Shown piece after piece: positions 1,910 to 58,816 of a DNA stretch of 64,000 bases. This DNA comes from Escherichia phage vB_EcoM_FJ1. Each line of letters opens with the position of its first letter. Position 1 is the stretch's first letter. The notes beneath the pieces were generated by a model. It had not been told where the DNA came from and ran no database searches. It saw only the letters and a program-made list of their open reading frames with translations. The translations under genes were made by a program, and so were the position numbers. The stretch is taken from the sequence record MZ170040.1, one strand, 5' to 3'.

Positions 1910-3678
1910 AAAAGCCACAAGAAATGCAAACGATGCGTAGAAAAGTTATTTCAGATAATAAACCAACACAGGAAGCGGCTAAATCCGCTTCTAATACTTT
2001 ATCTGGACTTAATGATATATCTACGAAATTGGATGATGCTCAAGCTGCCTCTGAATTAATAGCTCAAACTGTCGAAGAAAAATCGAATGAAATAATTGGA
2101 GCAATTGATAACGTAGAAAGCGCAGTGAGTGATACTACTGCTGGTTCTGAGTTAATTGCTGAAACTGTCGAAATTGGCAACAATATTAATAAAGAAATCG
2201 GTGAATCACTCGGAAGCAAATTAGATAAATTAACGAGTTTATTAGAACAAAAAATTCAGACAGCTGGAATTCAACAGACGGGAACTAGTTTAGCCACGGT
2301 TGAAAGCGCTATTCCTGTTAAAGTCGTTGAGGATGATACTGCCGAATCTGTGGGTCCTTTATTACCAGCTCCCGAAGCAGTTAATAATGATCCTGACGCT
2401 GATTTTTTCCCTACCCCTCAACCAGTTGAACCCAAACAAGAATCACCAGAAGAAAAACAGAAAAAAGAAGCATTTAACTTAAAATTATCTCAAGCTTTAG
2501 ATAAATTAACAAAGACAGTTGATTTTGGATTTAAGAAATCTATTTCAATTACTGATAAAATATCAAGCATGCTATTTAAGTACACCGTCAGTGCTGCTAT
2601 TGAAGCCGCTAAAATGACTGCAATGATATTGGCTGTTGTTGTTGGAATAGACCTGTTGATGGTTCATTTTAAATACTGGTCAGATAAATTTTCAAAAGCC
2701 TGGGATTTATATAGTACTGATTTTACTAAATTCTCTAGCGAAACCGGAACATGGGGTCCTTTATTACAGAGCATCTTTGATTCTATTGATAAAATTAAAC
2801 AACTTTGGGAAGCGGGAGATTGGGGTGGATTGACAACAGCTATCATAGAAGGACTTGGAAGTGTTCTTTTTAATTTAGGAGAGCTTATTCAATTAGGTAT
2901 GGCTAAATTATCTGCAGCAATTCTTCGAGTCATTCCTGGTATGAAAGATACCGCTGATGAAGTAGAAGGAAGAGCGCTGGAAAATTTCCAAAATACTACA
3001 AATGCTTCTCTTAGCAAAGAAGACCAAGAAAAAGTTGCAAATTATCAATATAAAAGAATGAACGGAGACCTTGGTCCAATAGCAAAAGGATTAGACAAAA
3101 TTGCGAACTGGAAAACTCGTGCATCTAACTGGATTCGTGGTGTAGATAATAAAGAAGCACTAACAACTGATGAAGAGAGAGCAGAGGAAGAAGAAAAATT
3201 AAAGCAGCTTTCACCAGAGGAAGCTAAAATTGCTTTAATGAAAGCTAATGAAGCTCGTGCTGCTATGAATCGTTTTGAAAAATATGCTGATTCAGCTGAT
3301 ATGAGTAAAGACTCAACGGTTAAATCTGTTGAATCTGCCTATGAAGACCTTAAAAAACGGATGGATGACCCGGATTTAAACAATTCACCGGCAGTTAAAA
3401 AAGAACTTGCTGCTAGATTTTCTAAAATTGATGCTACTTATCAAGAGCTCAAGAAAAATCAGCCTAATGCCAAACCTGAAACTTCTGCTAAATCGCCAGA
3501 AGCGAAACAGGTCCAGGTTATTGAAAAGAACAAAGCACAGCAAGCTCCTGTTCAGCAAGCATCTCCTTCAATCAATAATACTAATAATGTTATTAAGAAA
3601 AATACTGTCGTTCATAATATGACACCTGTCACAAGCACAACTGCTCCTGGTGTATTTGATGCGACTGGAGTTAATTAA
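1906..3678 (+). CDS. 29: baseplate hub subunit / tail length determinator gp29
   Basis: 590 aa as in T4 gp29; ATGA overlap with gene 28; Ala/Glu/Lys-rich low-complexity middle region. Confidence 0.9.
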   Translation: MKKPQEMQTMRRKVISDNKPTQEAAKSASNTLSGLNDISTKLDDAQAASELIAQTVEEKSNEIIGAIDNVESAVSDTTAGSELIAETVEIGNNINKEIGESLGSKLDKLTSLLEQKIQTAGIQQTGTSLATVESAIPVKVVEDDTAESVGPLLPAPEAVNNDPDADFFPTPQPVEPKQESPEEKQKKEAFNLKLSQALDKLTKTVDFGFKKSISITDKISSMLFKYTVSAAIEAAKMTAMILAVVVGIDLLMVHFKYWSDKFSKAWDLYSTDFTKFSSETGTWGPLLQSIFDSIDKIKQLWEAGDWGGLTTAIIEGLGSVLFNLGELIQLGMAKLSAAILRVIPGMKDTADEVEGRALENFQNTTNASLSKEDQEKVANYQYKRMNGDLGPIAKGLDKIANWKTRASNWIRGVDNKEALTTDEERAEEEEKLKQLSPEEAKIALMKANEARAAMNRFEKYADSADMSKDSTVKSVESAYEDLKKRMDDPDLNNSPAVKKELAARFSKIDATYQELKKNQPNAKPETSAKSPEAKQVQVIEKNKAQQAPVQQASPSINNTNNVIKKNTVVHNMTPVTSTTAPGVFDATGVN

Positions 3679-3686
3679 GGAATAAT

Positions 3687-4781
3687 ATGGCAATTGTTAA
3701 AGAAATAACTACTGATTTAATTAAAAAGTCCGGTGAGAAAATTTCAGCCGGACAGAGCACTAAATCAGAAGTAGTAACTAAAACATATACTGCCCAGTTT
3801 CCAACTGGGCGTGCTAGTGGTAATGACACTACAGGGGACTTCCAGGTAACAGATCTATATAAGAATGGATTATTATTTACTGCATACAATATGTCATCTA
3901 GGGATTCTGGAAGTCTTAGATCGATGAGATCTAACTACTCTTCTGCGTCTTCGGGTATTTTGAGTACAGCTAAAAACACTATTAGTAGTACAGTATCAAA
4001 ACTATCAAATGGATTAATATCAAATAATAATTCAGGAACAATAAGTAAAGCTCCTGTCGCAAACATTCTTTTACCGAGATCTAAATCTGATGTTGACACA
4101 TCATCACATAGATTTAATGATGTTCAAGAAAGCCTTATTAGTAGAGGCGGAGGTACTGCTACTGGTGTGCTAAGTAATATTGCTTCAACCGCAGTATTTG
4201 GGGCACTGGAAAGTATAACACAAGGTATAATGGCTGATAATAATGAGCAGATTTATACGACAGCCAGAAGTATGTACGGTGGCGCTGAAAATAGAACTAA
4301 AGTGTTTACATGGGATTTGACTCCACGTTCAACAGAAGATTTAATGGCTATTATTAATATCTATCAATATTTTAACTATTTTTCTTATGGTGAAACAGGT
4401 AAATCTCAATACACTGCTGAAATAAAGGCGTATTTAGATGATTGGTATCGTTCTACGTTAATTGAACCTTTATCTGCGGAAGACGCAGCTAAAAATAAAA
4501 CACTATTTGAGAAAATGACAGCAAGTTTAACGAACGTTCTAGTAGTTTCAAACCCGACAGTTTGGATGGTGAAAAACTTTGGTGCAACATCTAAGTTTGA
4601 TGGAAAAACGGAAATATTTGGTCCATGCCAAATACAGAGCATTAGATTTGATAAAACACCTAATGGTAACTTTAACGGATTAGCTATTGCTCCAAACCTC
4701 CCTAGTACATTTACTCTCGAGATTACTATGAGAGAAATTATCACGTTAAACCGTGCTTCTTTATATGCGGGGACTTTTTAA
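3687..4781 (+). CDS. 48: baseplate tail-tube junction protein gp48
   Basis: 364 aa as T4 gp48; synteny. Confidence 0.9.
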   Translation: MAIVKEITTDLIKKSGEKISAGQSTKSEVVTKTYTAQFPTGRASGNDTTGDFQVTDLYKNGLLFTAYNMSSRDSGSLRSMRSNYSSASSGILSTAKNTISSTVSKLSNGLISNNNSGTISKAPVANILLPRSKSDVDTSSHRFNDVQESLISRGGGTATGVLSNIASTAVFGALESITQGIMADNNEQIYTTARSMYGGAENRTKVFTWDLTPRSTEDLMAIINIYQYFNYFSYGETGKSQYTAEIKAYLDDWYRSTLIEPLSAEDAAKNKTLFEKMTASLTNVLVVSNPTVWMVKNFGATSKFDGKTEIFGPCQIQSIRFDKTPNGNFNGLAIAPNLPSTFTLEITMREIITLNRASLYAGTF

Positions 4782-5746
4782 TGTATTCTTTAGAGGAATT
4801 TAATAATCAAGCAATAAACGCAGATTTCCAACGTAATAATATGTTTAGCTGCGTTTTTGCAACAACTCCATCAACTAAAAGCTCTTCGTTGATAAGTTCA
4901 ATTAGCAACTTTTCTTATAATAACTTGGGCCTAAATTCAAATTGGTTAGGATTAACTCAAGGTGATATTAATCAGGGAATTACCACGCTAATTACAGCTG
5001 GCACACAAAAACTGATAAGAAAATCAGGGATTAGTAAATATCTTATTGGTGCCATGAGTCAACGTACAGTTCAAAGTTTATTAGGCTCATTTACAGTTGG
5101 TACATATTTAATTGACTTCTTTAACATGGCATATAACTCATCTGGATTGATGATATACTCTGTAAAAATGCCAGAGAATAGATTATCCTATGAAACTGAC
5201 TGGAACTATAATTCTCCTAATATTCGTATAACTGGGAGAGAATTAGACCCTTTGGTTATTTCATTTAGAATGGATTCAGAAGCTTGTAACTATCGTGCAA
5301 TGCAAGACTGGGTTAACGCTGTTCAAGACCCAGTAACTGGACTGCGTGCTTTGCCACAAGATGTCGAGGCAGATATTCAGGTTAATCTTCATTCTCGTAA
5401 TGGATTGCCTCATACTGCGGTGATGTTCACCGGATGCATTCCAGTGTCCGTAAGCGCTCCTGAACTATCATATGATGGAGATAACCAAATAACTACATTT
5501 GATGTTACTTTTGCGTACAGAGTGATGCAGGCTGGAGCAGTTGATAGGCAAGCTGCGCTTGAATGGCTTGAATCTGCTGCTATAAATGGTATTCAAAGCG
5601 TTCTCGGAAATAGTGGAGGTGTTACTGGACTATCTAATTCGCTTTCACGACTCAGTAGATTAGGGGGAACTGCAGGAAGCATTTCAAACATTAATACTAT
5701 GACAGGAATTGTCAATTCGCAAAGTAAAATATTAGGAGCAATATAA
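4781..5746 (+). CDS. 54: baseplate tail-tube initiator gp54
   Basis: 321 aa (T4 gp54 ~320); start overlaps gp48 stop; synteny. Confidence 0.9.
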   Translation: MYSLEEFNNQAINADFQRNNMFSCVFATTPSTKSSSLISSISNFSYNNLGLNSNWLGLTQGDINQGITTLITAGTQKLIRKSGISKYLIGAMSQRTVQSLLGSFTVGTYLIDFFNMAYNSSGLMIYSVKMPENRLSYETDWNYNSPNIRITGRELDPLVISFRMDSEACNYRAMQDWVNAVQDPVTGLRALPQDVEADIQVNLHSRNGLPHTAVMFTGCIPVSVSAPELSYDGDNQITTFDVTFAYRVMQAGAVDRQAALEWLESAAINGIQSVLGNSGGVTGLSNSLSRLSRLGGTAGSISNINTMTGIVNSQSKILGAI

Positions 5747-5750
5747 CAAC

Positions 5751-5768
5751 GGGGACCTTTCGGTCCCC
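5751..5768. terminator. bidirectional hairpin terminator between convergent gene 54 and the minus-strand early block
   Basis: GGGGACC-TTTC-GGTCCCC stem-loop followed by T-rich run; lies between two convergent stop codons. Confidence 0.75.
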
Positions 5769-5774
5769 ATATTT

Positions 5775-6065
5775 TTATTTACGGAATGAAATGAAAGCAG
5801 AAACTGAAGCAACTAAACTGTCTTCAATATAAACTTCAATTTTTACCGGAGCTTCTGACTCAAATTTACCTGTTACTACACCCTGAAAAATACTTTCAGT
5901 CTGTTCTGGCTTTGAAAAATTTTCAGAAGGAAAAATTCCGAACTTTTTATCTGTTCCAAAAATTTTAATAAATTCATCGTAAACCGCTTCGTTAAAAGCA
6001 TTATCAGCAGGAATAACGCCTTCAACTACAAGTTCTTGACCTAAAAAGCGTAAAGAAGATTTCAT
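5775..6065 (-). CDS. hypothetical protein (alt.-x position)
   Basis: 96-aa ORF; GAGGA Shine-Dalgarno and early promoter cassette immediately upstream. Confidence 0.6.
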   Translation of the reverse strand: MKSSLRFLGQELVVEGVIPADNAFNEAVYDEFIKIFGTDKKFGIFPSENFSKPEQTESIFQGVVTGKFESEAPVKIEVYIEDSLVASVSAFISFRK

Positions 6066-6072
6066 TTTGTGT

Positions 6073-6126
6073 TCCTCATGTTATGTCAGTAAGACTACTA
6101 TAACACAACACGAGGGACTTGTAAAC
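6073..6126 (-). promoter_or_regulatory. early promoter/leader cassette (GTTTAC -35, TATAGT -10, GAGGA SD), copy A of a 54-bp perfect repeat
   Basis: 54 nt identical to 20347-20400; minus strand reads GTTTAC-N18-TATAGT...CATAACATGAGGA. Confidence 0.7.
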
Positions 6127-6486
6127 TACATTTTGAACTTTTTAGTACGCGTAATAGGCATGCGTCGATTTTATACTGTTTCATTGTTTGAAGAGCAGTA
6201 TCAAAAACAGCATTAATGACGCCAATTGGATTTCCACCCAAGTTTTTAAGTTTAACTAATGATAGTTTCTCATTAACACCTATCATTACGATATGCATCA
6301 TTTTGTCGCCTGGTTTAACGTTTTATCTGTATCACCGCCAGAGGTGTATGTACAAAATCTAAATCCAGGAAGCACGCTTTCTTCGCCGGCTTGAATAGCA
6401 AAAATTTGTGGTATTTTATGCTTAGGATTTAAGTTAACAACCGGCGCCGAAGCGCCGTCAAATAATTATGTAATAAGTTCCATGAT
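6098..6486 (-). pseudogene. decayed duplicate of the alt 5' region (about 125 codons; stop at codon 6 plus a frameshift)
   Basis: DNA and protein similarity to alt codons 1 to ~125 (compare 6301-6486 with 8400-8583); ATG at 6483 followed by TAA after 5 codons; 67-aa ORF 6098-6301 matches Alt residues ~65-125 in another frame. Confidence 0.7.
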
Positions 6487-8583
6487 TTATCCTTGAACGA
6501 ACTTGTAAGGCATGTTTGCAATATCTATGCAAGACGCAATAATTCCAAGAGATGATTCTACTTTCTGTTTAACATTTGATGAAACAAATGATGCAAAGTC
6601 AACTCTGTCTTCTATTTCAATATCACCTGTCATTGCAACCAATTCACCAGTTTCCATTAAATGGTCTCCATCATAGATTACCGATTCGGTGAGCTCTTCC
6701 GTGGTCATAACTTCAGCTTGAATGAGTTTTGTATTATTAGATGTTGTTCCGTCATTATTAGAAGCATCAGTTATTTTATTAACTTTGACCATCAATCCAC
6801 GCGGTAGAATAACTTCAGCTTCTGTTGCTATTCCGAGACTTCCTGGATATACAACATTAACTTTATGAGCTCCATCAATTGCCCATCCTATTTGAACTTT
6901 AACGTATTCAGGATTTTCTTTATACGCTCTTATTTCGTTTGGATTAATAGTTATTCCTTCTTCATTTTTATCAACTGTTAATTCATTGCGAGCTTCTGGT
7001 TCTAAAAGACCAATACCAGCATGTGTAATTCCAAAACGTCCAAAAATGATAGGAGTTAAAGAAGTAGATACAAAATTTCTGAAATAGAATACTTTATTTT
7101 TAACTAGTGCTTCGTATATAGGAGCAGTCATACTTTGAGCACGATAAACTGTAATGCCTTCTGGTATACGATCACCATTTTCAAAAGCAGAATCTAAATT
7201 AGTTATAGCAGCTTCAATTTCTTTTTCACTCATTACTTCATAACGTTCTGGATCATAACGACCCAAAAGAAGATTATTGATGTCAGTATATCCTGAACCG
7301 CAATACTCTCTAATGCCACGCTTTTGTGATGGAGTATATTTAGAACCATCACGGGCAATAGTAATATCAATCATTGGACCTGCACCAATTCCAGAGAAAC
7401 TATAAATCATTCTTTTGAGGAATTTAGTTTTTGTCGCGTTCCAGGAATTTTTAGTTATTTCTTCCCAGACTTCATCTGGCTGTCCTTTACGGGTTTTATT
7501 ATGTTTATCAAGCCAAGTATCTTTATATTCTTCAAATAATTGATTAACAGCTGCTGCGTATTTCTCTAAACATTTTATTGAAGTAGTCGGTTCATTTTTA
7601 ATCGCATTAAGAATTACATCTTTAATTTTTTCAGAAACTTCATTAACCTCACTTTTTGAAAAGAATTTATAGTCATAATGAAGTTCATCTGCAGTTCCTT
7701 CGGCAATGATTTTTGCTGCCTTAGTTTTAGAAGCTAATGAATTAATTCCAATTTTCATTTCTTCTGCTTCGGGAATTAAAGGTGCAGTAGCTGGTTTATT
7801 AAAATTAGCTGCTGTAGATTCATACTTCTGGAATAATTCACTTTCAAATCTAGAAGACTCTAATGATTGACTTTGTGCAATTGCTCTACGGGAAATTTTA
7901 ACTTTAACGATTACAGCTTGATCAGAACGTTTATCATTTTCTTGTGCAATAGATGCTGCAATTGCCTCATTTTTAGTTACTTGAGCTCCGGTATCTTTAT
8001 TGATATAAACATCACCGACCTTCGATTCAACTTTAGTAAAGAGCTCGGTACTAATTTCCGGAACTCCTGGAATGTCTTCTAGTGATACATTTTTGCGATG
8101 TATAAGAATATATGCATACTTTTTATCATAATCCCAGAGTTCCTTAAGAAGGACGTATCTGCCACCTGAACGACTACGGATAAGTCTATCAACAATAACT
8201 TGAATTTGTCGAGCTTGACCAGCAGTTTTAGACTTAAGAATACGGAGCATACAGGCATCAATTTTATACTGACGCATTGTTTGCATTGCAACAGTAAAAA
8301 CCGAATTGATATAATTAATTGGGCTTGGACCAAGACCTTTCAATTTAGCAATTGAACCTTTAGCGGTTAATGTAAAAGGAACAATATGCATCATTTTATC
8401 GCCCATCTTTAAATCACGATTAGTATCACCTCCAGATGTATAGGTACATAAACGAAAGCCTGGTTGTTCAATTGCATCATCAACATGAACTGAAAAAATT
8501 TGTGGTATTTTCTTCTTTGGATTTAAGTTTGTAATCGGAAGAGTAGTATCTTCGTCAAATAATTCTGTAATTAGTTCCATCAT
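6487..8583 (-). CDS. alt: Alt ADP-ribosyltransferase (virion-packaged)
   Basis: 698 aa (T4 Alt 682); position between gene 54 and gene 30; late promoter upstream. Confidence 0.85.
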   Translation of the reverse strand: MMELITELFDEDTTLPITNLNPKKKIPQIFSVHVDDAIEQPGFRLCTYTSGGDTNRDLKMGDKMMHIVPFTLTAKGSIAKLKGLGPSPINYINSVFTVAMQTMRQYKIDACMLRILKSKTAGQARQIQVIVDRLIRSRSGGRYVLLKELWDYDKKYAYILIHRKNVSLEDIPGVPEISTELFTKVESKVGDVYINKDTGAQVTKNEAIAASIAQENDKRSDQAVIVKVKISRRAIAQSQSLESSRFESELFQKYESTAANFNKPATAPLIPEAEEMKIGINSLASKTKAAKIIAEGTADELHYDYKFFSKSEVNEVSEKIKDVILNAIKNEPTTSIKCLEKYAAAVNQLFEEYKDTWLDKHNKTRKGQPDEVWEEITKNSWNATKTKFLKRMIYSFSGIGAGPMIDITIARDGSKYTPSQKRGIREYCGSGYTDINNLLLGRYDPERYEVMSEKEIEAAITNLDSAFENGDRIPEGITVYRAQSMTAPIYEALVKNKVFYFRNFVSTSLTPIIFGRFGITHAGIGLLEPEARNELTVDKNEEGITINPNEIRAYKENPEYVKVQIGWAIDGAHKVNVVYPGSLGIATEAEVILPRGLMVKVNKITDASNNDGTTSNNTKLIQAEVMTTEELTESVIYDGDHLMETGELVAMTGDIEIEDRVDFASFVSSNVKQKVESSLGIIASCIDIANMPYKFVQG

Positions 8584-8603
8584 ATCCTCTCTAGTGTTTA
8601 TTC

Positions 8604-8611
8604 TATTTATA
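8604..8611 (-). promoter_or_regulatory. late promoter TATAAATA upstream of alt
   Basis: Minus-strand TATAAATA about 20 nt upstream of alt ATG, followed by AGAGAGGA SD. Confidence 0.6.
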
Positions 8612-8632
8612 AAATTAAAGGCCCGAAGGCCT

Positions 8633-8821
8633 TTAGTAATCTAGTGGTAAGAGAGTACGATATATTTCAAACTTTGGTCCTTTTTCATAGGCATCAAATG
8701 TTTCTGTAAATTTATTATAAGCGTATGCATCTACAAATTCGAGAATGACTTGTGATACAGAAGTAGAAACATCTCCACCTTCTTTTTGAGCAATGACAAT
8801 TGTTTCTAAGTAAGCTTTCAT
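8633..8821 (-). CDS. hypothetical small protein
   Basis: 62-aa ORF; ATGA start/stop overlap with gene 30; hairpin AAAGGCCCGAAGGCCTTT at its 3' end. Confidence 0.55.
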   Translation of the reverse strand: MKAYLETIVIAQKEGGDVSTSVSQVILEFVDAYAYNKFTETFDAYEKGPKFEIYRTLLPLDY

Positions 8822-10281
8822 AGACCAGTTACCTCATGAAAATCACCAAATACATCCTCGAATGTATTAGCTTTAGTTTTATCTTCACGTAAACGAATCG
8901 CAATCGGAAGAAATAATTTAACGTAATCAGTGCGGCCATCAGATTTTAACCAACCGTTGCATTCGCACTCTAGAATTTTTCCAATATAATAATTTTGGTT
9001 TTCCATAATGCGAGTACGGTCAAGTTCATGTGATTTTACACCGGCTTTATCTTTTAAGCCTGAACCAGCATTTACCTTAATTTTTCCACACTCTGACTCA
9101 AGAATAAATCCACCCGCTTTAGTAGGGTCTTTACGGTGAGGATAAATTCCTACAATTTTTAAATCAACATCAATTACTTCTTTAAATTTATAGAGATTTT
9201 TTGAACGAGCATTTTCCCATAATCCATCGATATTTTTGAGAATAATACCTTCAAGACCTTGGTCAATATACTTTTTATAAATTACCTTAGCTTCATCTAG
9301 GTTATTTACTACCTGGTTTTCAATTAAAATTACTTTATCATAGCCTGATGTCATTTGTTCTAGTTTAGAAAAACGTACATCATATTTCAAACGAAATGCA
9401 GGAAGACCGTATATTTCTACCAATGGAACATAATCCCAGACCTGAAACTTCATGCATTGAGCTTCTTTTTCAGAAATGGTTCCCTTTAAAGATTTATTAG
9501 CGATTCCATTAGAAGTAGTACGTGATTCAGCTACTTCGGCGAATTCTTTGGCTTTACTGTTTTCAGGATGAGCATCAAAAAGAAAATCTAGGTCTTCTGG
9601 CTCCTTTTTAACTTGCTCATGGTATACCAATTCGCCATCAATTAACACGCCTTCTGGATGAATCTGGCGGGCTTCAGCGGTCATTTTGATTAATTCTTCC
9701 TTAAGAAGATCTAATCCTAGATATTCATTACCGGCTCGTGATAAAAGACGAACATCATCTAATTCATCACCTCTGACTTCGGCAAAGCACCGAGCCCCAT
9801 CAGCTTTTAACTGGGCAAAGGCTGGAAATTTGATATTCTTATTAATGCCTTTTTCATCATAAGAACTTGCCAGCATTTGAGGTTGTTCAGGAATTAAACC
9901 TGGCCAAACTTTGTTTGCAATAGATACTGAAGCACCACATTCAAGGTCTCGCATCATCACTCGACGCAAAACTTCAACATCATCTTTTTTACCATCGGTG
10001 ATATATCCAGTTAATTCCTCAATTGCCGCATTTCCAGTCAATTTCCGAGTAGCTAACGTGAATTCAATGAAGTCAAGCATATCGGTAAGAGTCAACATTC
10101 CAAAACTCTGGGTAGCAATACCAGGTTTAGGCCATTTCTTGATATAATACTGTAACCCACGAGAATAAGTCAGACGATATACTCGTTTAAGCAATTCATT
10201 ATCTTTATTCTTTTCAAGAATTGCTTGCTTCTGCTTAGTTGAACCAATAGATGCTATTTCGTTCAGAATTTTAAGAATCAT
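8818..10281 (-). CDS. 30: ATP-dependent DNA ligase gp30
   Basis: 487 aa as T4 ligase; KADGAR adenylation motif. Confidence 0.95.
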   Translation of the reverse strand: MILKILNEIASIGSTKQKQAILEKNKDNELLKRVYRLTYSRGLQYYIKKWPKPGIATQSFGMLTLTDMLDFIEFTLATRKLTGNAAIEELTGYITDGKKDDVEVLRRVMMRDLECGASVSIANKVWPGLIPEQPQMLASSYDEKGINKNIKFPAFAQLKADGARCFAEVRGDELDDVRLLSRAGNEYLGLDLLKEELIKMTAEARQIHPEGVLIDGELVYHEQVKKEPEDLDFLFDAHPENSKAKEFAEVAESRTTSNGIANKSLKGTISEKEAQCMKFQVWDYVPLVEIYGLPAFRLKYDVRFSKLEQMTSGYDKVILIENQVVNNLDEAKVIYKKYIDQGLEGIILKNIDGLWENARSKNLYKFKEVIDVDLKIVGIYPHRKDPTKAGGFILESECGKIKVNAGSGLKDKAGVKSHELDRTRIMENQNYYIGKILECECNGWLKSDGRTDYVKLFLPIAIRLREDKTKANTFEDVFGDFHEVTGL

Positions 10282-13613: not shown

Positions 13614-14011
13614 TATAAATTCTCTTTTAAATGAAAATGCAGGACTTATTGGCATTGCCTGCGCAAGCCCTCAAGGGGAACATAGGTTTTTGGATATTTA
13701 ACGACCAGGATAACCATAAACCCGTCATCATACCTTATAGCTCTTATCTGTTGCACACCGTTAGCTTAAAGGTTCCGGGTTCGATTTCTCGAGGATAAGA
13801 TATATACTGATGGATATATAGGCCTTGAGGCGTACTCCCGATTGGCCATCACCTCGGGGTAGCATGCACTTGCCGCTATAAGAATAACATTCAAGAGGTA
13901 CACCGTAAAACTGCCGGGGTCTTAAAACTATAATGATTCGCAAATCATTAATCAGACAGTTCGACGGCTCCTCGATTTTAGCTCACACTAAGGCAGTGAA
14001 TCTCCAGTAAA

Positions 14012-16261: not shown

Positions 16262-16494
16262 AGTACGCCATACACCCTTTGTGCTTCAACTAATCCATCA
16301 AAATCCAGTTTAAGATGCGATATTTGATCGCCATCACCTGGATTCACAATTACTAATACTGAACGAGGAGTTTCGGTAATAACACGAACCGATGTTTCAG
16401 GAAATCGTTCAGAAACCTTATTTACCAATTCCTGCGCAAATAGTTTAACTTTTTCTTGGAATTCTTTAACAGTAATTGGTTTTTCACTTAGCAT
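16258..16494 (-). CDS. hypothetical protein
   Basis: 78-aa ORF, overlaps neighbours by 4-7 nt. Confidence 0.55.
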   Translation of the reverse strand: MLSEKPITVKEFQEKVKLFAQELVNKVSERFPETSVRVITETPRSVLVIVNPGDGDQISHLKLDFDGLVEAQRVYGVL

Positions 16495-17015
16495 GTTGAT
16501 CCCAGCTCCTTACTTTCAACGTTTTTAACTAATTTGACAGAAACTAATTCAGCATCTTGAGTAATCATTACCGGGCCTTCTTCATACTCTTCAAGATATT
16601 CTAGAGCTTTCTTTTTAGCTTCTTCCTTCGTATCAGTTTGAGCATAGATATAAAACATACAACCAGTAATACCTACTACTTTCCACTTAATTTCTTTATC
16701 AGTTTTAATTTCAAATTTACTGACAGAATCATCTTTTTGAACTTCTTCGAAAAAAGAATATTCTAACATATAAGCAATTGAAAATAACGGGCTAACTTTA
16801 TAAGATTCGCCCATTACATCAACAGCTTTATACCAACAATCATCAATTTCGCGTTTAATGCTAATAACATTTTTCGCAGGATCTATTTTTACTTTAAATG
16901 AATTTTCCCCAATAAACTGGGCAATTCGTTTATTAGCCCCGCAAGTTTCATTAAAAATATCTTTATATCCAGCTTTAAAGCGATAAACCTTATCTTCTTC
17001 AAACCATTCGCTCAT
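16488..17015 (-). CDS. hypothetical protein
   Basis: 175-aa ORF with SD; early promoter upstream. Confidence 0.6.
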   Translation of the reverse strand: MSEWFEEDKVYRFKAGYKDIFNETCGANKRIAQFIGENSFKVKIDPAKNVISIKREIDDCWYKAVDVMGESYKVSPLFSIAYMLEYSFFEEVQKDDSVSKFEIKTDKEIKWKVVGITGCMFYIYAQTDTKEEAKKKALEYLEEYEEGPVMITQDAELVSVKLVKNVESKELGSTC

Positions 17016-17045
17016 TTCAATTTCCTCATTTGTTTTGGTAGAGCT

Positions 17046-17746: not shown

Positions 17747-18971
<1,225 letters not shown>

Positions 18972-19495: not shown

Positions 19496-19845
19496 TTAGA
19501 AAGGTCCTGGATGTCTTCTGCGAACTTGTTGAAGGAGTTGTTGATTTGTTTTTCAACCAATCCTGGCTTATGAGCCACCACATCCGCCTTCTTTGCGTCT
19601 TTGCGCAGTTTTTCATTTTCACGCTCAATAGCAGCAATTGCCTCACGATTTTTATTATTCATCGCATCAATATAATTATACTGAATTCGCAAATTATTTA
19701 ATGCTAAGGCGTTTTCATTGGCCGTTTTTGTAATTTCTACAACAGACGTTTCTAATCTTTCAATTTTATTTTTTAAAATTAAAGAAGTTCCGCCCAATGC
19801 AATTACAATTAATAGCAAGCCTGCTGTCGTATTACTTAATTGCAT
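19492..19845 (-). CDS. i-spanin (N-terminal TM anchor plus periplasmic coiled coil)
   Basis: 117 aa; N-terminal hydrophobic segment then heptad-like coiled coil; pseT.3 position next to alc. Confidence 0.75.
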   Translation of the reverse strand: MQLSNTTAGLLLIVIALGGTSLILKNKIERLETSVVEITKTANENALALNNLRIQYNYIDAMNNKNREAIAAIERENEKLRKDAKKADVVAHKPGLVEKQINNSFNKFAEDIQDLSK

Positions 19846-20342
19846 AAAGTTTTAATAACCTCTATAATATCGTCTTGAGAAAGACCGTTAATTAAAATAT
19901 GATGTTCAGCCGGAGATTTAGAAATTTTAAAGCATGCCTCAACATCTTCTGCCATATCCGATGCGCTACGATTTGGATTACTAATCCCAAGGCGGTGTTT
20001 TCCCGTCAAAGGATTAACGATGATATAGCATTTACAACTATTGATATGAACATTAGGCTGAGTCTGATTAATGAACACTTCACAATCATACTTAGCGAGT
20101 TGATTTTCTAAAAAGACTTTCATCTCTTCAACCGCATCAGGAAGCATATCACGGGCTTGCTCAAGACGACGATTTCGATATTCTTTAATGGTCGTTTTCC
20201 GCTTGACTTGCTTAGCTAAATCTTTCTTAAGATCAGTGATATATCCAACTCGACGATTTCCTTTGAATACCGAAATCCCATCTGTAGTATCACCGTATGC
20301 TTCAACGACCATTTCAGTAGTAATAAGTTGTAAATCCATCAT
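19836..20342 (-). CDS. alc: Alc, inhibitor of host transcription on cytosine-containing DNA
   Basis: 168 aa (T4 Alc 167); position between pseT.3 and rnlA. Confidence 0.8.
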   Translation of the reverse strand: MMDLQLITTEMVVEAYGDTTDGISVFKGNRRVGYITDLKKDLAKQVKRKTTIKEYRNRRLEQARDMLPDAVEEMKVFLENQLAKYDCEVFINQTQPNVHINSCKCYIIVNPLTGKHRLGISNPNRSASDMAEDVEACFKISKSPAEHHILINGLSQDDIIEVIKTLCN

Positions 20343-20346
20343 AAAG

Positions 20347-20400
20347 TCCTCATGTTATGTCAGTAAGACTACTATAACACAACACGAGGGACTTGTAAAC
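20347..20400 (-). promoter_or_regulatory. early promoter/leader cassette, copy B of the 54-bp perfect repeat
   Basis: Identical to 6073-6126; immediately upstream of alc. Confidence 0.7.
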
Positions 20401-20403
20401 AGC

Positions 20404-21991
<1,588 letters not shown>

Positions 21992-28819: not shown

Positions 28820-28879
28820 TTTTCTTTTCTCCATTAGTTTTGATAGGGTAATAGTATCACACTACTACTCTTCTGTAAA

Positions 28880-29245
28880 CTACTTTTTGAAAGTTTTTCG
28901 CAAAAGTTCAATGATTTCATCTACATTGTTTTCGTCAACAATGCAGTGAATTTTTGTTACGCCAGAAACCTTGTCTTTGACTTCATCTTCTTCAGAAGTC
29001 GGTTCTTTATACTCACGAAAACAATGAAATTCATCTTCGCAGACGTTGAAGTAAAAATGCTTTCCATTGGCGCATTCTACGTGTTTTACTACTTTAAATC
29101 CATCAGCAAAGAAAACTTCTTTAACTTCAAACCATCCGCCATTTTCTTGAATAGCTTTAACTATTAATGAATTAGAACGCGGGCGATAATTAATAAATGT
29201 ATCAATAAGTCTTGGAACAAGTTCGTACTTTTTATCAATATACAT
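28880..29245 (-). CDS. hypothetical protein
   Basis: 121-aa ORF; hairpin AGGGGCT...AGCCCCT after stop. Confidence 0.55.
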   Translation of the reverse strand: MYIDKKYELVPRLIDTFINYRPRSNSLIVKAIQENGGWFEVKEVFFADGFKVVKHVECANGKHFYFNVCEDEFHCFREYKEPTSEEDEVKDKVSGVTKIHCIVDENNVDEIIELLRKTFKK

Positions 29246-29541: not shown

Positions 29542-29584
29542 CAGCAGTATTGCCGATAGTTGTATAGTACCATAAAGCTTTATG

Positions 29585-29623
29585 CTTGTAAACCGTTTTG
29601 TGAAAAAATTTTTGAAATAAAAA
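29585..29623 (-). promoter_or_regulatory. early promoter cassette with A/T-rich upstream element, member of a repeat family
   Basis: Near-identical to 47525-47565 and similar to 51165-51200; minus strand has the A/T-rich element then GTTTAC. Confidence 0.6.
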
Positions 29624-29624
29624 A

Positions 29625-29643
29625 GGGGACCTCTAGGGTCCCC
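29625..29643 (-). terminator. intrinsic terminator after gene 32
   Basis: GGGGACCCTAGAGGTCCCC hairpin followed by T-run on minus strand. Confidence 0.75.
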
Positions 29644-29665
29644 AATTAATTAGTAATATAATCTA

Positions 29666-33525: not shown

Positions 33526-36500
33526 ATGGCCGAGATTAAAAGAAAGTTCAGAGCAGAAGATGGTCTGGACGCAGGTGGCGATAAAATAATCAACGTAGCT
33601 TTAGCTGATCGTACCGTAGGAACTGACGGTGTTAACGTTGATTACTTAATTCAAGAAAACACAGTTCAACAATACGATCCAACTCGTGGATATTTAAAAG
33701 ATTTTGTAATCATTTATGATAACCGCTTTTGGGCTGCTATAAATGATATTCCAAAACCGGCAGGAGCTTTTAATAGCGGACGCTGGAGAGCATTACGTAC
33801 CGATGCTAACTGGATTACAGTCTCATCTGGTTCATATCAATTAAAATCGGGTGAAGCAATTTCGGTTAACACCGCAGCTGGAAATGACATCACGTTTACT
33901 TTACCATCTTCTCCAATTGATGGTGATACTATCGTTCTCCAAGATATTGGAGGAAAACCTGGAGTTAACCAAGTTTTAATTGTAGCTCCAGTGCAAAGTA
34001 TTGTAAACTTTAGAGGTGAACAGGTACGTTCAGTACTAATGACTCATCCAAAGTCACAGCTAGTTTTAATTTTTAGTAATCGTCTGTGGCAAATGTATGT
34101 TGCTGATTATAGTAGAGAAGCTATAGTTGTAACACCAGCGAATACTTATCAAGCGCAATCCAACGATTTTATCGTGCGTAGATTTACTTCTGCTGCACCA
34201 ATTAATGTTAAACTTCCAAGATTTGCTAATCATGGCGATATTATTAATTTCGTCGATTTAGATAAACTGAATCCACTTTATCATACAATTGTTACTACAT
34301 ACGATGAAACGACTTCAGTACAAGAAGTTGGAACTCATTCCATTGAAGGCCGTACATCGATTGACGGTTTCTTGATGTTTGATGATAATGAGAAATTGTG
34401 GAGATTGTTTGACGGGGATAGTAAAGCACGTTTACGTATCATAACAACTAATTCAAACATTCGTCCAAATGAAGAAGTTATGGTATTTGGTGCGAATAAT
34501 GGAACAACTCAGACAATTGAGCTTAAGCTTCCAACTAATATTTCTGTTGGTGATACTGTTAAAATTTCCATGAATTACATGAGAAAAGGACAAACAGTTA
34601 AAATCAAAGCTGCTGATGAAGATAAAATTGCTTCTTCAGTTCAATTGCTGCAATTCCCAAAACGTTCAGAGTATCCACCTGAAGCTGAATGGGTGACTGT
34701 TCAAGAATTAATTTTTAACGGTGAAACTAATTATGTTCCAGTTTTGGAGCTTGCTTACATAGAAGATTCTGATGGAAAATACTGGGTTGTACAGCAAAAT
34801 GTTCCAACTGTAGAAAGAGTTGATTCTTTAAATGATTCTACTAGAGCGAGATTAGGCGTAATTGCTTTAGCTACACAAGCGCAAGCTAATGCCGATTTAG
34901 AAAATTCTCCACAAAAAGAATTAGCAATTACTCCAGAAACGTTAGCTAATCGTACTGCTACTGAAACTCGTAGAGGTATTGCAAGAATAGCAACTACTGC
35001 TCAAGTGAATCAGAACACCACATTCTCTTTTGCAGATGACCTTATCATTACTCCTAAAAAGCTGAATGAAAGAACTGCTACAGAAACTCGTAGAGGTGTT
35101 GCTGAAATTGCTACGCAGCAAGAAACTAATGCAGGTACTGATGATACTACAATCATTACTCCTAAAAAGCTTCAAGCTCGTCAAGGTTCTGAGTCATTAT
35201 CTGGTATTGTAACCTTTGTATCTACCGCAGGAGCTACTCCAGCTTCTAGTCGTGAATTAAATGGTACAAACGTTTATAATAAAAACACTAATAATTTAGT
35301 TGTTTCGCCTAAAGCTCTGGATCAGTATAAAGCTACTCCAACGCAACAAGGTGCAGTAATTTTAGCAGTTGAAAGTGAAGTAATTGCTGGGCAGAGTCAA
35401 GAAGGATGGGCAAATGCGGTTGTAACGCCAGAAACGTTACATAAAAAGACATCAACTGATGCAAGAATTGGTTTAATTGAAATTGCTACGCAAAGTGAAG
35501 TTAATACAGGAACTGATTATACTCGTGCAGTCACTCCTAAAACTTTAAATGACCGTAAAGCAACTGAAAGTTTAAGTGGTATAGCTGAAATTGCTACACA
35601 AGTTGAATTCGACGCAGGCGTCGACGATACTCGTATCTCTACACCATTAAAAATTAAAACTAGATTTAATAGTACTGATCGTACTTCTGTTGTTGCTCTA
35701 TCTGGATTAGTTGAATCAGGAACTCTCTGGGACCATTATACCCTTAATATTCTTGAAGCAAATGAGACACAGCGTGGTACACTTCGTGTAGCTACACAGG
35801 TTGAAGCTGCTGCAGGAACATTAGATAATGTTTTAATAACTCCTAAAAAGCTTTTAGGTACTAAATCTACCGAATCGCAGGAAGGTGTTATTAAAGTTGC
35901 AACTCAGTCTGAAACTGTGACTGGAACGTCAGCAAATACTGCTGTATCTCCAAAAAATTTAAAATGGATTGTGCAGAGTGAACCTACTTGGGCAGCTACT
36001 ACTGCGATAAGAGGCTTTGTTAAAACTTCATCTGGTTCAATTACATTCGTTGGTAATGATACAGCTGGTTCTACGCAGGACTTAGAGCTATACGAGAAAA
36101 ATAGCTATGCAGTATCACCATACGAATTAAACCGTGTACTCGCTAACTATTTGCCATTAAAAGCAAAAGCTGCTGACGCAAATTTATTAGATGGCCTAGA
36201 TTCATCTCAGTTCATTCGTAGGGACATTGCACAGACGGTTAATGGTTCACTAACCTTAACCCAGCAAACGAATCTGAGTGCCCCTCTTGTATCATCTAGT
36301 ACTGCTACGTTTGGTGGATCAGTTTCGGCAAATAGTACATTAACTATTTCTAATACTGGAACGGCAACTCGTCTGATTTTTGAGAAAGGACCTCAAACTG
36401 GAACTAACCCAGCACAGACGATGACTATCAGAGTTTGGGGAAATCAGTTTGGCGGCGGTTCAGATACAACACGTTCTACTGTATTTGAAGTTGGTGATGA

Positions 36501-37395
36501 AACATCTAATCACTTTTATTCTCAACGTAATAAAGCTGGGAATATAACGTTTAGTATCAATGGTACTATGATGCCAATAAATGTTAATGCTTCGGGTTCT
36601 TTGAATGCGAACGGCGTTGCAACATTTGGTAGTTCAGTTACAGCCAATGGCGAATTCATCAGCAAGTCTGCAAATGCTTTCAGAGCAATAAATGGCGACT
36701 ATGGATTCTTTATTCGCAATGATGCTGCTAACACCTATTTTATGCTTACTGCATCGGGTGATCAGACTGGCGGATTTAATGGATTACGTCCTTTAGCTAT
36801 TAACAATCAGTCCGGTCAAGTAACGATTGGTGAAAGCTTAATCATTGCCAAAGGTGCTACTATAAATTCAGGTGGTTTAACTGTTAACTCGAGAATTCGT
36901 TCTCAGGGCACTAAAACTTCTGACTTATATACCCGTGCGCCAACATCTGATACTGTAGGATTCTGGTCAATCGATATTAATGATTCAGCTACTTATAACC
37001 AATTCCCGGGTTATTTTAAAATGGTTGAAAAAACTAATGAAGTGACTGGACTTCCATACTTAGAACGTGGCGAAGAAGTTAAATCTCCTGGTACATTGAC
37101 TCAGTTTGGTAACACACTTGATTCGCTTTACCAAGATTGGATTACTTATCCAACGACGCCAGAAGCGCGTACCACTCGCTGGACACGTACCTGGCAGAAA
37201 ACCAAAAACTCTTGGTCAAGTTTTGTTCAGGTATTTGATGGAGGTAACCCTCCTCAACCATCTGATATCGGTGCTTTACCATCTGATAATGCTACAATGG
37301 GCAATCTTACTATTCGTGATTTCTTGCGAATTGGTAATGTTCGCATTATTCCTGACCCAGTGAATAAAACGGTTAAATTTGAATGGGTTGAATAA
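33526..37395 (+). CDS. 34: long tail fibre proximal subunit gp34
   Basis: 1289 aa as T4 gp34; internal repeats; conserved MAEIKR N-terminus. Confidence 0.95.
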   Translation: MAEIKRKFRAEDGLDAGGDKIINVALADRTVGTDGVNVDYLIQENTVQQYDPTRGYLKDFVIIYDNRFWAAINDIPKPAGAFNSGRWRALRTDANWITVSSGSYQLKSGEAISVNTAAGNDITFTLPSSPIDGDTIVLQDIGGKPGVNQVLIVAPVQSIVNFRGEQVRSVLMTHPKSQLVLIFSNRLWQMYVADYSREAIVVTPANTYQAQSNDFIVRRFTSAAPINVKLPRFANHGDIINFVDLDKLNPLYHTIVTTYDETTSVQEVGTHSIEGRTSIDGFLMFDDNEKLWRLFDGDSKARLRIITTNSNIRPNEEVMVFGANNGTTQTIELKLPTNISVGDTVKISMNYMRKGQTVKIKAADEDKIASSVQLLQFPKRSEYPPEAEWVTVQELIFNGETNYVPVLELAYIEDSDGKYWVVQQNVPTVERVDSLNDSTRARLGVIALATQAQANADLENSPQKELAITPETLANRTATETRRGIARIATTAQVNQNTTFSFADDLIITPKKLNERTATETRRGVAEIATQQETNAGTDDTTIITPKKLQARQGSESLSGIVTFVSTAGATPASSRELNGTNVYNKNTNNLVVSPKALDQYKATPTQQGAVILAVESEVIAGQSQEGWANAVVTPETLHKKTSTDARIGLIEIATQSEVNTGTDYTRAVTPKTLNDRKATESLSGIAEIATQVEFDAGVDDTRISTPLKIKTRFNSTDRTSVVALSGLVESGTLWDHYTLNILEANETQRGTLRVATQVEAAAGTLDNVLITPKKLLGTKSTESQEGVIKVATQSETVTGTSANTAVSPKNLKWIVQSEPTWAATTAIRGFVKTSSGSITFVGNDTAGSTQDLELYEKNSYAVSPYELNRVLANYLPLKAKAADANLLDGLDSSQFIRRDIAQTVNGSLTLTQQTNLSAPLVSSSTATFGGSVSANSTLTISNTGTATRLIFEKGPQTGTNPAQTMTIRVWGNQFGGGSDTTRSTVFEVGDETSNHFYSQRNKAGNITFSINGTMMPINVNASGSLNANGVATFGSSVTANGEFISKSANAFRAINGDYGFFIRNDAANTYFMLTASGDQTGGFNGLRPLAINNQSGQVTIGESLIIAKGATINSGGLTVNSRIRSQGTKTSDLYTRAPTSDTVGFWSIDINDSATYNQFPGYFKMVEKTNEVTGLPYLERGEEVKSPGTLTQFGNTLDSLYQDWITYPTTPEARTTRWTRTWQKTKNSWSSFVQVFDGGNPPQPSDIGALPSDNATMGNLTIRDFLRIGNVRIIPDPVNKTVKFEWVE

Positions 37396-39252: not shown

Positions 39253-42200
39253 ATGGCTACTTTAAAACAAATACAATTTAAAAGAAGCAAAACCGCAGGT
39301 GCACGTCCTGCTGCTTCAGTATTAGCCGAAGGTGAATTGGCTATAAACTTAAAAGATAGAACAATTTTTACTAAAGACGATTCAGGAACTATCATTGATC
39401 TAGGTATTGCTAAAGGCGGTCAAATTGATGGAAATGTGACTATCAATGGTCTTTTAAGATTAAATGGGGATTATACACAAACTGGTGGAATGACCGTAAA
39501 TGGACCTATTGGTTCTACTGAAGGCGTATCCGCCTTAGTTTTTAGATCTATGCGAGGGTCATTTTACGCAAGAGCAACAAATGATACTTCCAATGCCCAT
39601 CTTTGGTTTGAAAATACAGATGGATCGGAGAGAGGTGTTTTATATTCAAAACCACAGTCTGAAAATGAAGGCGTAATTACAATGCGTGTTCGCCAAGGAA
39701 CCGCAGCAGGGGCTCAAAATTCAGAATTTCATTTCATTTCGACTGATGGTGGTATTTTCCAGGCACGTAAATTAACTGCTTTAACTTCTATTAGTACACC
39801 AACTATTAGTGTTAATTTAATTAATCATGATTCTAAAGCCTTTGGGCAATACGATTCACAATCATTGGTTCAGTATGTTTATCCTGGAACCGGTGAAACT
39901 AACGGAGTAAACTATCTTCGTAAAGTTCGTGCTAAATCTGGCGGCACTATATGGCATGAAATCTGTACAGCTCAGACTGGACAAGCTGATGAAATGTCAT
40001 GGTGGACTGGTAAAACACCATTATTTAAACTATACGGTATTCGTAACGACGGTAGAATGATTATCCGCAATAGCTTGGCCATTGGTACTGTGACTGAAGG
40101 ATACCCGTCAAGCGATTATGGAAATACCGGGGTAATGGGAGATAGGTATTTAGCTCTTGGCGATAATGCTTCTGGACTTAAATGGGTTCGTACTGGCGTT
40201 ATTGACTTAATGGCTAACGGTATTTCTGCGGCGACTATTATTAATAATGGTATTAATAGTACTAAAAAATTGATGGTCGGTTATAGCCGCGATTCTGGTA
40301 CTACATGGGATTTTCCAAATAACAACCAAGCAATGTTTACTGCGCGTACCGATATTGATGGTAATAATAACGGTGATGGGCAAACTCATATCGGTTATAA
40401 CAGTAATTCTAAAATGCATCACTATTTCCGTGGTACAGGTCGTATGGCTGTTGGTATGTCCCAAGGTCTCCTTGTTGAACCAGGAATTTTAGATATTAAC
40501 ACTGGTTCTAATAGAGTTGCTATTAGAGCAGATGGTACATTTGACTCAACCCGACGTATTTCAATGCGTACTGGATTATTTTTATCAGGTGATGATAATA
40601 CCAATGCTTTGTCATTTAAAGCTCCTACCGGTGTTGACGGAACCAAAACCATTAACTGGGATGCAGGCACTCGTAACGGACAGAATAAAAATACTGTTTC
40701 AATTAAAGCATGGGGTAATGCCTTTAACTCAGTTCCCGGTATTAGAGAAACTGTATTTGAAGTATATGATTCACAAGGTTATTATTTTTATTCACAACGC
40801 CAGCGCCCAGAAGGTTCTGAAACTGTTGGGCCCGTTGTAACCCAGTTCAATGGACCAGTTAATGCTAACGGCTCTATTAGCACTGCAGGAAATCTTAAAG
40901 TTGATGGTTTAAGCACTTTAAACGGTAATGTTACAATGAAGAACGGCTTGTTTTTACAAGGTGGTTCTTCTATTACCGGCCAAGTTAAAATCGGCGGAAC
41001 AACAAATGCATTGAGAATTTGGAACGCCGAATACGGTGCTATTTTCCGCCGTTCGGAAAGTAATCTTTATATTATTCCAACCAATCAAAATGAAGGCGAA
41101 AGTGGAGACATTCACAGCTCTTTGAGACCTGTGAGAATAGGATTAAACGATGGCATGGTTGGGTTAGGAAGAGATTCTTTTATAGTAGATCAAAATAATG
41201 CTTTAACTACTATAAACAGTAACTCTCGCATTAATGCCAACTTTAGAATGCAATTAGGACAAAATGCTTATATAGACATTGAGGCTTCTGATGGAGTTCG
41301 CCCAACAGGTTGTGGTTCCTTTGCATCTCAGAATGACGTAAACGTCAGAGCTCCAATTTATATGAATATAGAGCGTACTGCTACTTCTGAATACATTCCT
41401 ATTGTTAAACAACGGTATGTAAAGGGCGATAGTACTTATTCTATTGGTACCTTGATTTCTCAGGGAGACTTTCGCGTTCATTATCACCAGGGAACTAGCA
41501 CCAATGGCGTAGATTTGAGTTGGGAATTCCGTCGCACAGGCGATTTCCGCGCGGCAGGTAAAATTATTGCCGGTGCTGCTACTCTTGGCACTGATGGTAA
41601 TATCACGGGCGGTTCAGGAAACTTTGCTAACTTGAATACAACTTTAAACCGTAAAGTGAATTCTGGTTTTATTACTTATGGAGCAACTGCAGGTTGGTAC
41701 AAGTTTGCAACAGTAACAATGCCTCAAGCTACATCAACCGTTTCAATTACAGTCACTGGCGGAAATGGATTTAATTCTGGATCATTTAATCAGTGCGCAA
41801 TTTCTGAAATTGTTCTTCGTACAGGAAACAATACTCCTAAAGGATTAAATGCTGTTCTATATAGAAGAGGACTAAATTCATTTAGAGATATTGCTTGGGT
41901 TAATACATCTGGTGATACATATGACATTTATGTTAATATGGGAACATATGCTAATCAGTTGATATTTAACTATAGTTCTGTTGATAACGCTACAGTTCAA
42001 ATTATTGGCGCATTCAGTTCAGCCCAAAATCCTGTTGATGCATTGCCAGAAACATATATTAAAGGTCAGGTAGCAGATGTATTGACTAACTTAGTTGATT
42101 CTGGAAAAACGAAGCGTTTTGTTGCTGAATCTGAAATAGCTGTTAATAATCAAACTGGATTACGTATTACGAGTAATGGTGATAAATCTGGTTCAAATTC

Positions 42201-47462: not shown

Positions 47463-47524
47463 TTTCTAATCTCCGTAATTCTGTATCAGTAGTTGATAGT
47501 TGTATAGTACCACAGTATGCTTTG

Positions 47525-47565
47525 GTTGTAAACCGTTTTGTGAAAAAATTTTTGAAATAAAAAAA
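47525..47565 (-). promoter_or_regulatory. early promoter cassette upstream of motA, member of a repeat family
   Basis: Near-identical to 29585-29623. Confidence 0.6.
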
Positions 47566-47566
47566 G

Positions 47567-47584
47567 GGGAGCCGAAGCTCCCCA
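47567..47584 (-). terminator. intrinsic terminator hairpin
   Basis: GGGGAGC-TTCG-GCTCCCC followed by T-run on minus strand. Confidence 0.7.
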
Positions 47585-47588
47585 AAAA

Positions 47589-50616: not shown

Positions 50617-50681
50617 TTTCTGTTCCTCCGTAGTTGATAGGGTAATAATACCACAGAGGAACAGTCTTGTAAACAACTTTT

Positions 50682-50780
50682 TTAAAAATATTCGTAATAA
50701 ATGTGAATACCAACTACTACCGCTGAAACTTGTGCAACCCACCACGCACAAGCAATAAGTACAGAATTCAAAATTTTCAT
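50682..50780 (-). CDS. small membrane peptide, 32 aa
   Basis: MKILNSVLIACAWWVAQVSAVVVGIHIYYEYF; ATGA overlap. Confidence 0.4.
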   Translation of the reverse strand: MKILNSVLIACAWWVAQVSAVVVGIHIYYEYF

Positions 50781-51123: not shown

Positions 51124-51199
51124 TTTTGTTCCTCCGTAGTTGATAGGGTAATAGTACCACGGTCCTTGTGGTATGTAAACCGTTTTGTGAAAAATTTTT

Positions 51200-58742: not shown

Positions 58743-58797
58743 TATCAGTAGTTGATATTGATATAGTACCATAATCAACTACTGATGTATATAGTTT
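58743..58797 (-). promoter_or_regulatory. promoter cassette with 13-bp inverted repeat (ATCAGTAGTTGAT/ATCAACTACTGAT)
   Basis: Stem-loop encloses a TATAGT/TACTAT -10-like element; left arm shared with cassette at 47481-47500. Confidence 0.5.
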
Positions 58798-58816
58798 TAT
58801 GAAAAAATTTTAAACT

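Follow-up and report, generated by a model that had tools for sequence, protein, structure and literature searches.

A 1699-bp deletion between 9-bp direct repeats as the probable origin of the alt.-2 remnant in a T4-like phage, with an early promoter as probable bystander

Organization of the alt.-3–alt and alc regions

The window, a 64,000-nt stretch of DNA from Escherichia phage vB_EcoM_FJ1 (MZ170040.1), is a segment of a T4-like Tequatrovirus genome whose closest database match over positions 5700-8700 is phage vB_EcoM_Lutter (99.5%). The gene order 54/alt.-3/remnant/alt/alt.1/30 matches that of T4, with alt.1 and the DNA ligase gene 30 also carried on the minus strand beyond alt. The features of this region, and of the alc region in which one of its elements recurs, are as follows.

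ends at 5746, plus strand: gene 54
5749-5770, both strands: bidirectional intrinsic terminator hairpin shared by gene 54 (plus) and alt.-3 (minus), with terminator-like sites on both strands and an annotated terminator in Lutter and fPS-90
5775-6065, minus strand: alt.-3, an ORF of 96 aa with DUF5498 (PF17602, E = 5e-64), annotated as alt.-3 in T4 and RB3
6073-6126, minus strand: copy 1 of an exactly repeated 54-bp unit, serving alt.-3; a "promoter" is annotated at the equivalent place in Lutter
6126-6136, minus strand: surviving 3′ terminus of alt.-2, the final 11 nt, in which the TAG stop occupies 6126-6128, collinear with positions 927-937 of the RB3 locus (L002)
6137-6145: deletion junction, the sole surviving copy of the 9-bp direct repeat ACTTTTTAG; RB3 has two copies (L002 938-946 and 2637-2645), 1699 bp apart
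6146-6483, minus strand: 5′ remnant of alt.-2, ~113 codons, ATG at 6481-6483 (347 nt when the 9-mer is included)
6098-6301, minus strand: 67-aa ORF from the ORF list, equivalent to the T4 "alt.-2" (204 nt, same length)
6324-6325, minus strand: 1-nt loss from an A-run (frameshift), present in T4 and Lutter and absent from FL23, fPS-90 and the intact genes
6466-6468, minus strand: nonsense codon 6, GAA to TAA (T at 6468), present in Lutter and fPS-90 and absent from T4, FL23 and the intact genes
6487-8583, minus strand: alt, an ORF encoding a 698-aa ADP-ribosyltransferase (PF03496, E = 2e-36), the intact paralogue
19836-20342, minus strand: alc, inhibitor of host transcription (PF17527, E = 8e-92; annotations in relatives)
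20347-20400, minus strand: copy 2 of the 54-bp unit, an exact repeat serving alc, between the rnlA stop and the alc start
20404-21564, minus strand: rnlA, stop at 20404-20406, beside alc and ~14 kb beyond the alt region

Alt.-3 is uncharacterised, apart from C-terminally extended variants that lead to T4 escape from the CmdTAC defence system (PMC11618068). The alc frame opens with ATGATG (20337-20342); the ORF finder gives 168 aa, and in the T4 and RB3 annotations the gene starts at the second ATG and has 167 aa (504 nt). Two ORFs on the plus strand (6067-6216 and 6216-6362) are mechanical, running antisense within alt.-2-derived sequence, and carry no annotation in the relatives examined. Screening of the whole window against known RNA families returned no match (Rfam, gathering thresholds).

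Within the interval from alt.-3 to alc, three window segments are missing from T4 (13732-13886, 16494-17020, and 18652-18964), the latter two matching by position the extra small RB3 genes RB3_214 and RB3_217; an early-like promoter (GTTTAC at 17075) adjoins segment 16494-17020. The central part of alt (6817-7773) has no T4 match at the megablast level. Elsewhere in the window, direct repeats of 30-70 nt at spacings of 108/120 nt occur inside 34927-35852, and a 50-nt similarity links 36478-36527 to 40750-40799, 4.3 kb apart; both probably represent repeated motifs of long-tail-fibre genes.

Intact alt.-2 in relatives and the 1699-bp deletion

Alignment of minus-strand positions 6159-6493 with the alt 5′ end at 8252-8588 reveals 67.5% nucleotide identity over 348 columns, with a local score of 116 compared with 20.7 ± 2.2 for shuffled sequences. 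An earlier note on this DNA, made from the sequence, had called the interval a decayed tandem duplicate of alt; this is right, and T4 annotation already says so. Homology to ~125 codons of alt had been placed at 6127-6486; the homology holds up, and its extent is shorter, the retained 5′ part comprising ~116 codons. The similarity to the alt 5′ end also does not run exactly up to the 54-bp unit, as had been stated, and ends ~20-33 nt earlier, at the deletion junction (6137-6145).

With the 5′ end of an intact gene, alt.-2, in RB3, T2, and Shfl2, the remnant shares 95-97% identity, against only 66% with alt of the window, indicating that its divergence from alt is mostly old paralogue divergence rather than decay. 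Identity to the T4 alt.-1/alt.-2 region is 97% (337/347). In RB3, Shfl2, and T2, an intact 685-aa alt.-2 lies between alt and alt.-3, and a full-length alt.-2 is present in RB14 too; the annotation reads alt.-2 (RB14, RB3, and Shfl2) or "Alt-like RNA polymerase ADP-ribosyltransferase". Of the 502 records, 402 (~80%) cover alt.-2 to 80% or more, and in many relatives the 3-kb query aligns in two parts that together extend over 4.7 kb. Full-length comparison of Alt.-2 with Alt gives 42% identity, the first ~235 residues being much closer, and Alt.-2 possesses its own PF03496 (ADPrib_exo_Tox) domain at residues 416-620.

Comparison of the remnant with the intact gene shows the same start context 3 nt past the alt stop, the same 5′ ~347-348 nt (95-97%), the same 3′ end, and a stop codon that overlaps the alt.-3 promoter in both. 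It differs in being without 1699 bp, including the PF03496 catalytic domain, which is absent from the remnant since residues 416-620 fall within the deleted segment. The earlier note had named an intact independent gene at this place in related phages as the observation that would speak against its own account, and intact alt.-2 is such a gene in ~80% of records.

Superimposing the window on the RB3 locus defines the missing segment precisely. Window positions 5200-6145 are collinear with L002 positions 1-946, and positions 6137-9200 with 2637-5701 (~97% each), which leaves the window without 1699 bp of alt.-2. A 90-nt junction-spanning query (megablast) recovers the exact junction in 89 of 472 records; in the remaining records the match breaks into query positions 1-45 and 37-90, overlapping by exactly the 9-mer. 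In silico deletion of RB3 between its two 9-mers yields a 128-aa ORF that is actually present in FL23. The change thus ran from long to short, as indicated by the intact domain-bearing ORF in ~80% of records, the two 9-mers of the long form versus the one of the short, and the correspondence between the RB3 in silico product and the FL23 ORF.

In the lineage of T4 and the window, a single 1699-bp deletion between the two ACTTTTTAG repeats inside the alt.-2 coding sequence would have removed codons ~117 to near the end, the catalytic domain included. The junction is read directly from the sequences, and its anatomy points to slipped mispairing or illegitimate recombination at microhomology as the process. 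Microhomology-mediated deletions occur in T4, the rII deletions between short direct repeats being an example. The alt.-2 deletion resembles these in having its end points at a short direct repeat, here of 9 bp, with one copy kept, and differs in being natural, lineage-fixed, and recognized by comparison rather than experimentally selected. A plus-strand terminator-like hairpin at 6147-6165 adjoins the junction; RB3 has it too, within its intact alt.-2, and it is probably fortuitous.

Taken as a whole, positions 6126-6483 are, with high probability, best explained as an alt.-2 pseudogene remnant with a 1699-bp deletion in its history and a promoter that stood by as a bystander.

The 54-bp promoter unit and its two contexts

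The 54-bp unit, GTTTACAAGTCCCTCGTGTTGTGTTATAGTAGTCTTACTGACATAACATGAGGA when read on the minus strand, comprises in copy 1 a -35 element GTTTAC (6126-6121), a TG-extended -10 element TATAGT (6102-6097), a leader, and the SD sequence GAGGA (6077-6073). A sigma-70-type scan reads both copies as TTTACA-17-TATAGT, with 10/12 matches and TG present, and both carry the sequence features of an early (sigma-70) promoter (GTTTAC-type -35, 17-nt spacer, TATAAT-like -10, and TG). On this evidence the unit appears to be an ordinary T4 early sigma-70 promoter combined with the 5′ leader and ribosome-binding site of alt.-3. It overlaps the alt.-2 reading frame by one base, the final G of the TAG stop (6126-6128) doubling as the first base of the -35 GTTTAC.

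The two copies, direct repeats 14.3 kb apart, are identical at 54/54 positions, exactly as the earlier note had described; the match extends not one base further on either side, and the gene downstream of copy 2 is indeed alc, as its PF17527 match attests. Fourteen other GTTTAC-type early-like promoters in the window have merely 16-30 of the 54 positions in common with the unit, so its identity far exceeds promoter-consensus similarity; within 12 mismatches, the window contains no further copy. A 65-nt blastn query against 50,697 phage records found two places per Tequatrovirus genome and no third context, and an exact-pattern scan of IMG/VR returned only 6 loci, every one in an alt.-3 or alc context. 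The unit is restricted to these two fixed contexts across ~500 genomes, every inspected copy conforming; the mobility ascribed to it in the earlier note is accordingly not demonstrable.

Within genomes, the two copies show 0 nt of difference in the window, Lutter, and one IMG/VR contig, 1 nt in T4, 2 in RB3, 3 in Shfl2, and 5 each in T2 and KAW1E185. Among the seven genomes or contigs with both copies, the substitutions mostly differ between copies, the alt.-3 copy is the more variable, and the window sequence is the consensus of both loci. T2 has one substitution common to its two copies. This spectrum bears on a possible concerted evolution of the alt.-3 and alc promoters, in which gene conversion, recent or still under way, would account for the 54/54 identity; we consider this unlikely. 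The perfect identity in the window, Lutter, and the IMG/VR contig and the common T2 substitution would fit conversion, but the copies of T4, RB3, Shfl2, KAW1E185, and T2 differ mostly at different sites, and a window sequence equal to the consensus of both loci also argues against it. Concerted evolution of the copies is not supported by the mostly independent substitutions in the seven genomes or contigs; occasional conversion between copies is possible, given the common substitution of T2.

Sister genera place equivalent early promoters at the same two positions. At alc, one lies directly past the rnlA stop in Mosigvirus AV114; at alt.-3, one lies beside the alt stop in Mosigvirus HY126 and Gaprivervirus VR20, and in HY126 the TAG stop overlaps the -35 element too (TAGTTTAC). 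These promoters resemble the 54-bp unit solely at the consensus elements GTTTACAA and ACA(T/C)GAGGA. The 54/54 identity fits an old promoter duplication or conversion that predates diversification of the genus and was followed by conservation, and not a recent mobile insertion; differences of 0-5 nt, mostly through independent substitutions, argue for this history over recent transfer or strong ongoing homogenisation. In the Tequatrovirus ancestor, judging from the sister genera, one resident early promoter may have been overwritten by the other through an exchange anchored in the common -35 and SD motifs, which are the exact limits of the identity. The module would then have been conserved, with occasional substitutions arising mostly independently in its two copies. 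Either alt.-3 or alc may have been the donor locus.

A related module occurs in Mosigvirus ST0 (L007 ~1500-1560), where 43 nt of alt.-3-type -10, leader, SD, and spacer (86%), including the alt.-3-specific GAGGAACACAAAATG, lie between ndd-like and denB-like genes and precede an unrelated 66-aa hypothetical gene. Leader modules of this type thus seem to have passed, at some time, from gene to gene and across genera.

The unit invites comparison with the PeSL (promoter-early stem-loop) cassettes of T4-type phages (Arbiol et al. 2010, PMC2839356; Comeau et al. 2014, PMC4122927). As in PeSLs, a strong early sigma-70-type promoter module is near-identical at more than one locus, and the identity is bounded by the -35 and SD elements, where PeSL crossovers have been mapped. 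In contrast to PeSLs, neither 54-bp copy flanks ORFans, and each lies directly against a conserved gene's stop codon. No minus-strand terminator-like hairpin corresponding to the PeSL stem-loop lies upstream of either copy, where coding sequence continues up to the stop, and no PeSL-type gene shuffling is seen around the unit, which occupies the same two contexts in all genomes sampled and lies outside the deletion ends. By its sequence, the unit appears to resemble the promoter half of a PeSL while failing the defining features of these cassettes. Near-identical early-promoter modules are common in such genomes, and the unit is one of them.

Other minus-strand families of closely similar units in the window combine an early promoter with an upstream terminator hairpin (29546-29645 versus 47486-47585 and 50627-50704 versus 51133-51210; also 28840-28903 and 58745-58822), and two of these units are 81% identical over 91 nt including the G+C-rich hairpin. 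These units look like PeSL-type promoter-terminator cassettes.

Reading-frame decay and instability of the alt/alt.-2 pair

The remnant of the window has three lesions: the 1699-bp out-of-frame deletion, the 1-nt A-run loss, and the GAA-to-TAA change at codon 6. The stop at codon 6 claimed in the earlier note is present (TAA, 6466-6468), with the translation starting MELIT followed by the stop, and so is the claimed frameshift, one A being lost from the A-run between 6325 and 6324. An uninterrupted ADP-ribosyltransferase frame is therefore absent from the window remnant, broken as it is three times. Five deletion carriers have one identical junction and differing point lesions, as follows.

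FL23: 1699-bp deletion, yes; codon-6 nonsense, no; 1-nt frameshift, no
fPS-90: 1699-bp deletion, yes; codon-6 nonsense, yes; 1-nt frameshift, no
T4: 1699-bp deletion, yes; codon-6 nonsense, no; 1-nt frameshift, yes
window and Lutter: 1699-bp deletion, yes; codon-6 nonsense, yes; 1-nt frameshift, yes

The A-run loss and the codon-6 change would have followed the deletion, and the window has both. Since all four combinations exist, the order of lesions is not a simple line, and either recombination between lineages or recurrent A-run slippage is needed to account for them. In T4 the frameshift alone creates the annotated split into the alt.-1 and alt.-2 ORFs. These ORFs (T4p199/T4p198), likewise situated between alt and alt.-3, are orthologous to the window remnant and have both the 1699-bp junction and the 1-nt frameshift in common with it; the window, Lutter, and fPS-90 differ from T4 in the extra codon-6 nonsense, through which the 61-aa alt.-1 ORF of T4 is gone.

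The 67-aa ORF (6098-6301) has an internal Met-Met start, crosses the junction out of frame, and has its stop within the promoter. All deletion carriers examined retain it, and it is an annotated gene in T4; no Pfam match was found for it, and no SD is evident at its start. That the remnant is not dead, its ORFs (67 aa in the window, 61 + 67 aa in T4, and 128 aa in FL23) encoding useful small proteins derived from the Alt N terminus, could coexist with the deletion history but is improbable. The window, Lutter, and T4 keep the ORF intact, FL23 and fPS-90 contain it within a longer ORF, and the remnant persists in 89 records; against this, close relatives display four reading-frame states, as relaxed constraint predicts, the alt.-1 part is down to 5 codons in the window, and the 67-aa ORF combines an internal Met with a missing SD, an out-of-frame end in the promoter, and the lack of a Pfam match. 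A slightly smaller probability still attaches to a specific role, whether a functional Alt-like N-terminal peptide (67 aa, or 128 aa in FL23) acting, for example, in capsid targeting or Alt interference and thereby accounting for the retention of truncated alt.-2, or a deliberate coupling of alc and alt.-3 expression, as a regulatory pair, by the 54-bp unit; variants of Alt.-3 can block CmdTAC (PMC11618068).

The remnant would now be a ~360-nt spacer between alt and the alt.-3 promoter, probably non-coding. Transcription reading through from alt presumably includes it, the next terminator on the minus strand past alt being the hairpin at 5749-5770, beyond alt.-3, and the promoter in 6073-6126 would restart transcription for alt.-3.

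The remnant is an already known, annotated, and ordinary feature. In the T4 RefSeq entry (NC_000866), alt.-1/alt.-2 together are read as an "old duplication" of the beginning of alt with a stop codon inside; Nolan et al. 2006 (PMC1524935) list alt.-1 and alt.-2 among the paralogous duplications of alt, and the fPS-2 record labels its remnant "similar to N-terminal of ... Alt". The T4 entry thus describes a partial duplication, whereas the present comparison yields a deletion from a full-length paralogue. Duplication of only the first part of alt, followed by divergence and acquisition of a stop codon, is very improbable: besides the T4 wording, it would explain why the remnant spans just the 5′ part of a gene, but not its far greater identity to a full-length paralogue kept by ~80% of relatives (95-97%) than to alt (66%), its retention of the 3′ terminal nucleotides and stop codon of that paralogue, or the long-to-short polarity given by one 9-mer in the short form and two in the long. 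The T4 wording for alt.-1/alt.-2 is corrected accordingly: the two ORFs derive by deletion from a second, full-length Alt-like ADP-ribosyltransferase gene that most T-even relatives keep. To this known feature the present analysis adds the exact junction and the microhomology there, the direction of change from long to short, the series of decay states, and the chimeras described below, which may be of use in phage ADP-ribosyltransferase studies and to users of T4 as "the" reference, and otherwise means little beyond annotation.

The 54-bp unit is equally hard to credit with the truncation. In RB3, Shfl2, and T2 it occupies, with 1-5 substitutions, the same position overlapping the intact alt.-2 stop codon, so the promoter is older than the truncation and unconnected with it; the earlier proposal that a mobile promoter cassette truncated the alt duplicate fails on this point. 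Comparison of the gene 54-alt junction among relatives likewise removes the unit from the breakpoint, at which it had been placed: the 1699-bp deletion is wholly within the alt.-2 coding sequence, its end points sitting 10 nt and ~1.7 kb from the unit. Insertion of, or recombination at, a mobile 54-bp cassette that cut off a tandem alt duplicate and marks its breakpoint is scarcely tenable, for although the unit lies 10 nt from the junction and has an exact copy at another locus, and early-promoter cassettes of near-identical sequence are known to serve as recombination substrates in T4-type phages (PeSLs; PMC2839356), both end points fall at a 9-bp repeat unrelated to the unit, the last 11 nt of alt.-2 including the stop survive between the junction and the unit, and the unit stands at the identical position beside the intact gene. 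The cassette as cause of the truncation is rejected on the last of these grounds. In the deletion history preferred here, the unit would have stood beside the alt.-2 stop before the deletion and played no part in it.

The tandem pair is also found in recombined form. A single chimeric alt::alt.-2 gene replaces it in KAW1E185 (L009 3061-5118), with the crossover at ~nt 1800, and in SCS4 (L010 1561-3621), with the crossover at ~nt 450; these chimeras represent two independent unequal exchanges between the tandem paralogues. The alt/alt.-2 pair is structurally unstable, existing as an intact pair, as a microhomology deletion with or without point lesions, and as at least two independent chimeras. 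Mosigvirus HY126 and Gaprivervirus VR20 carry only one alt upstream of alt.-3.
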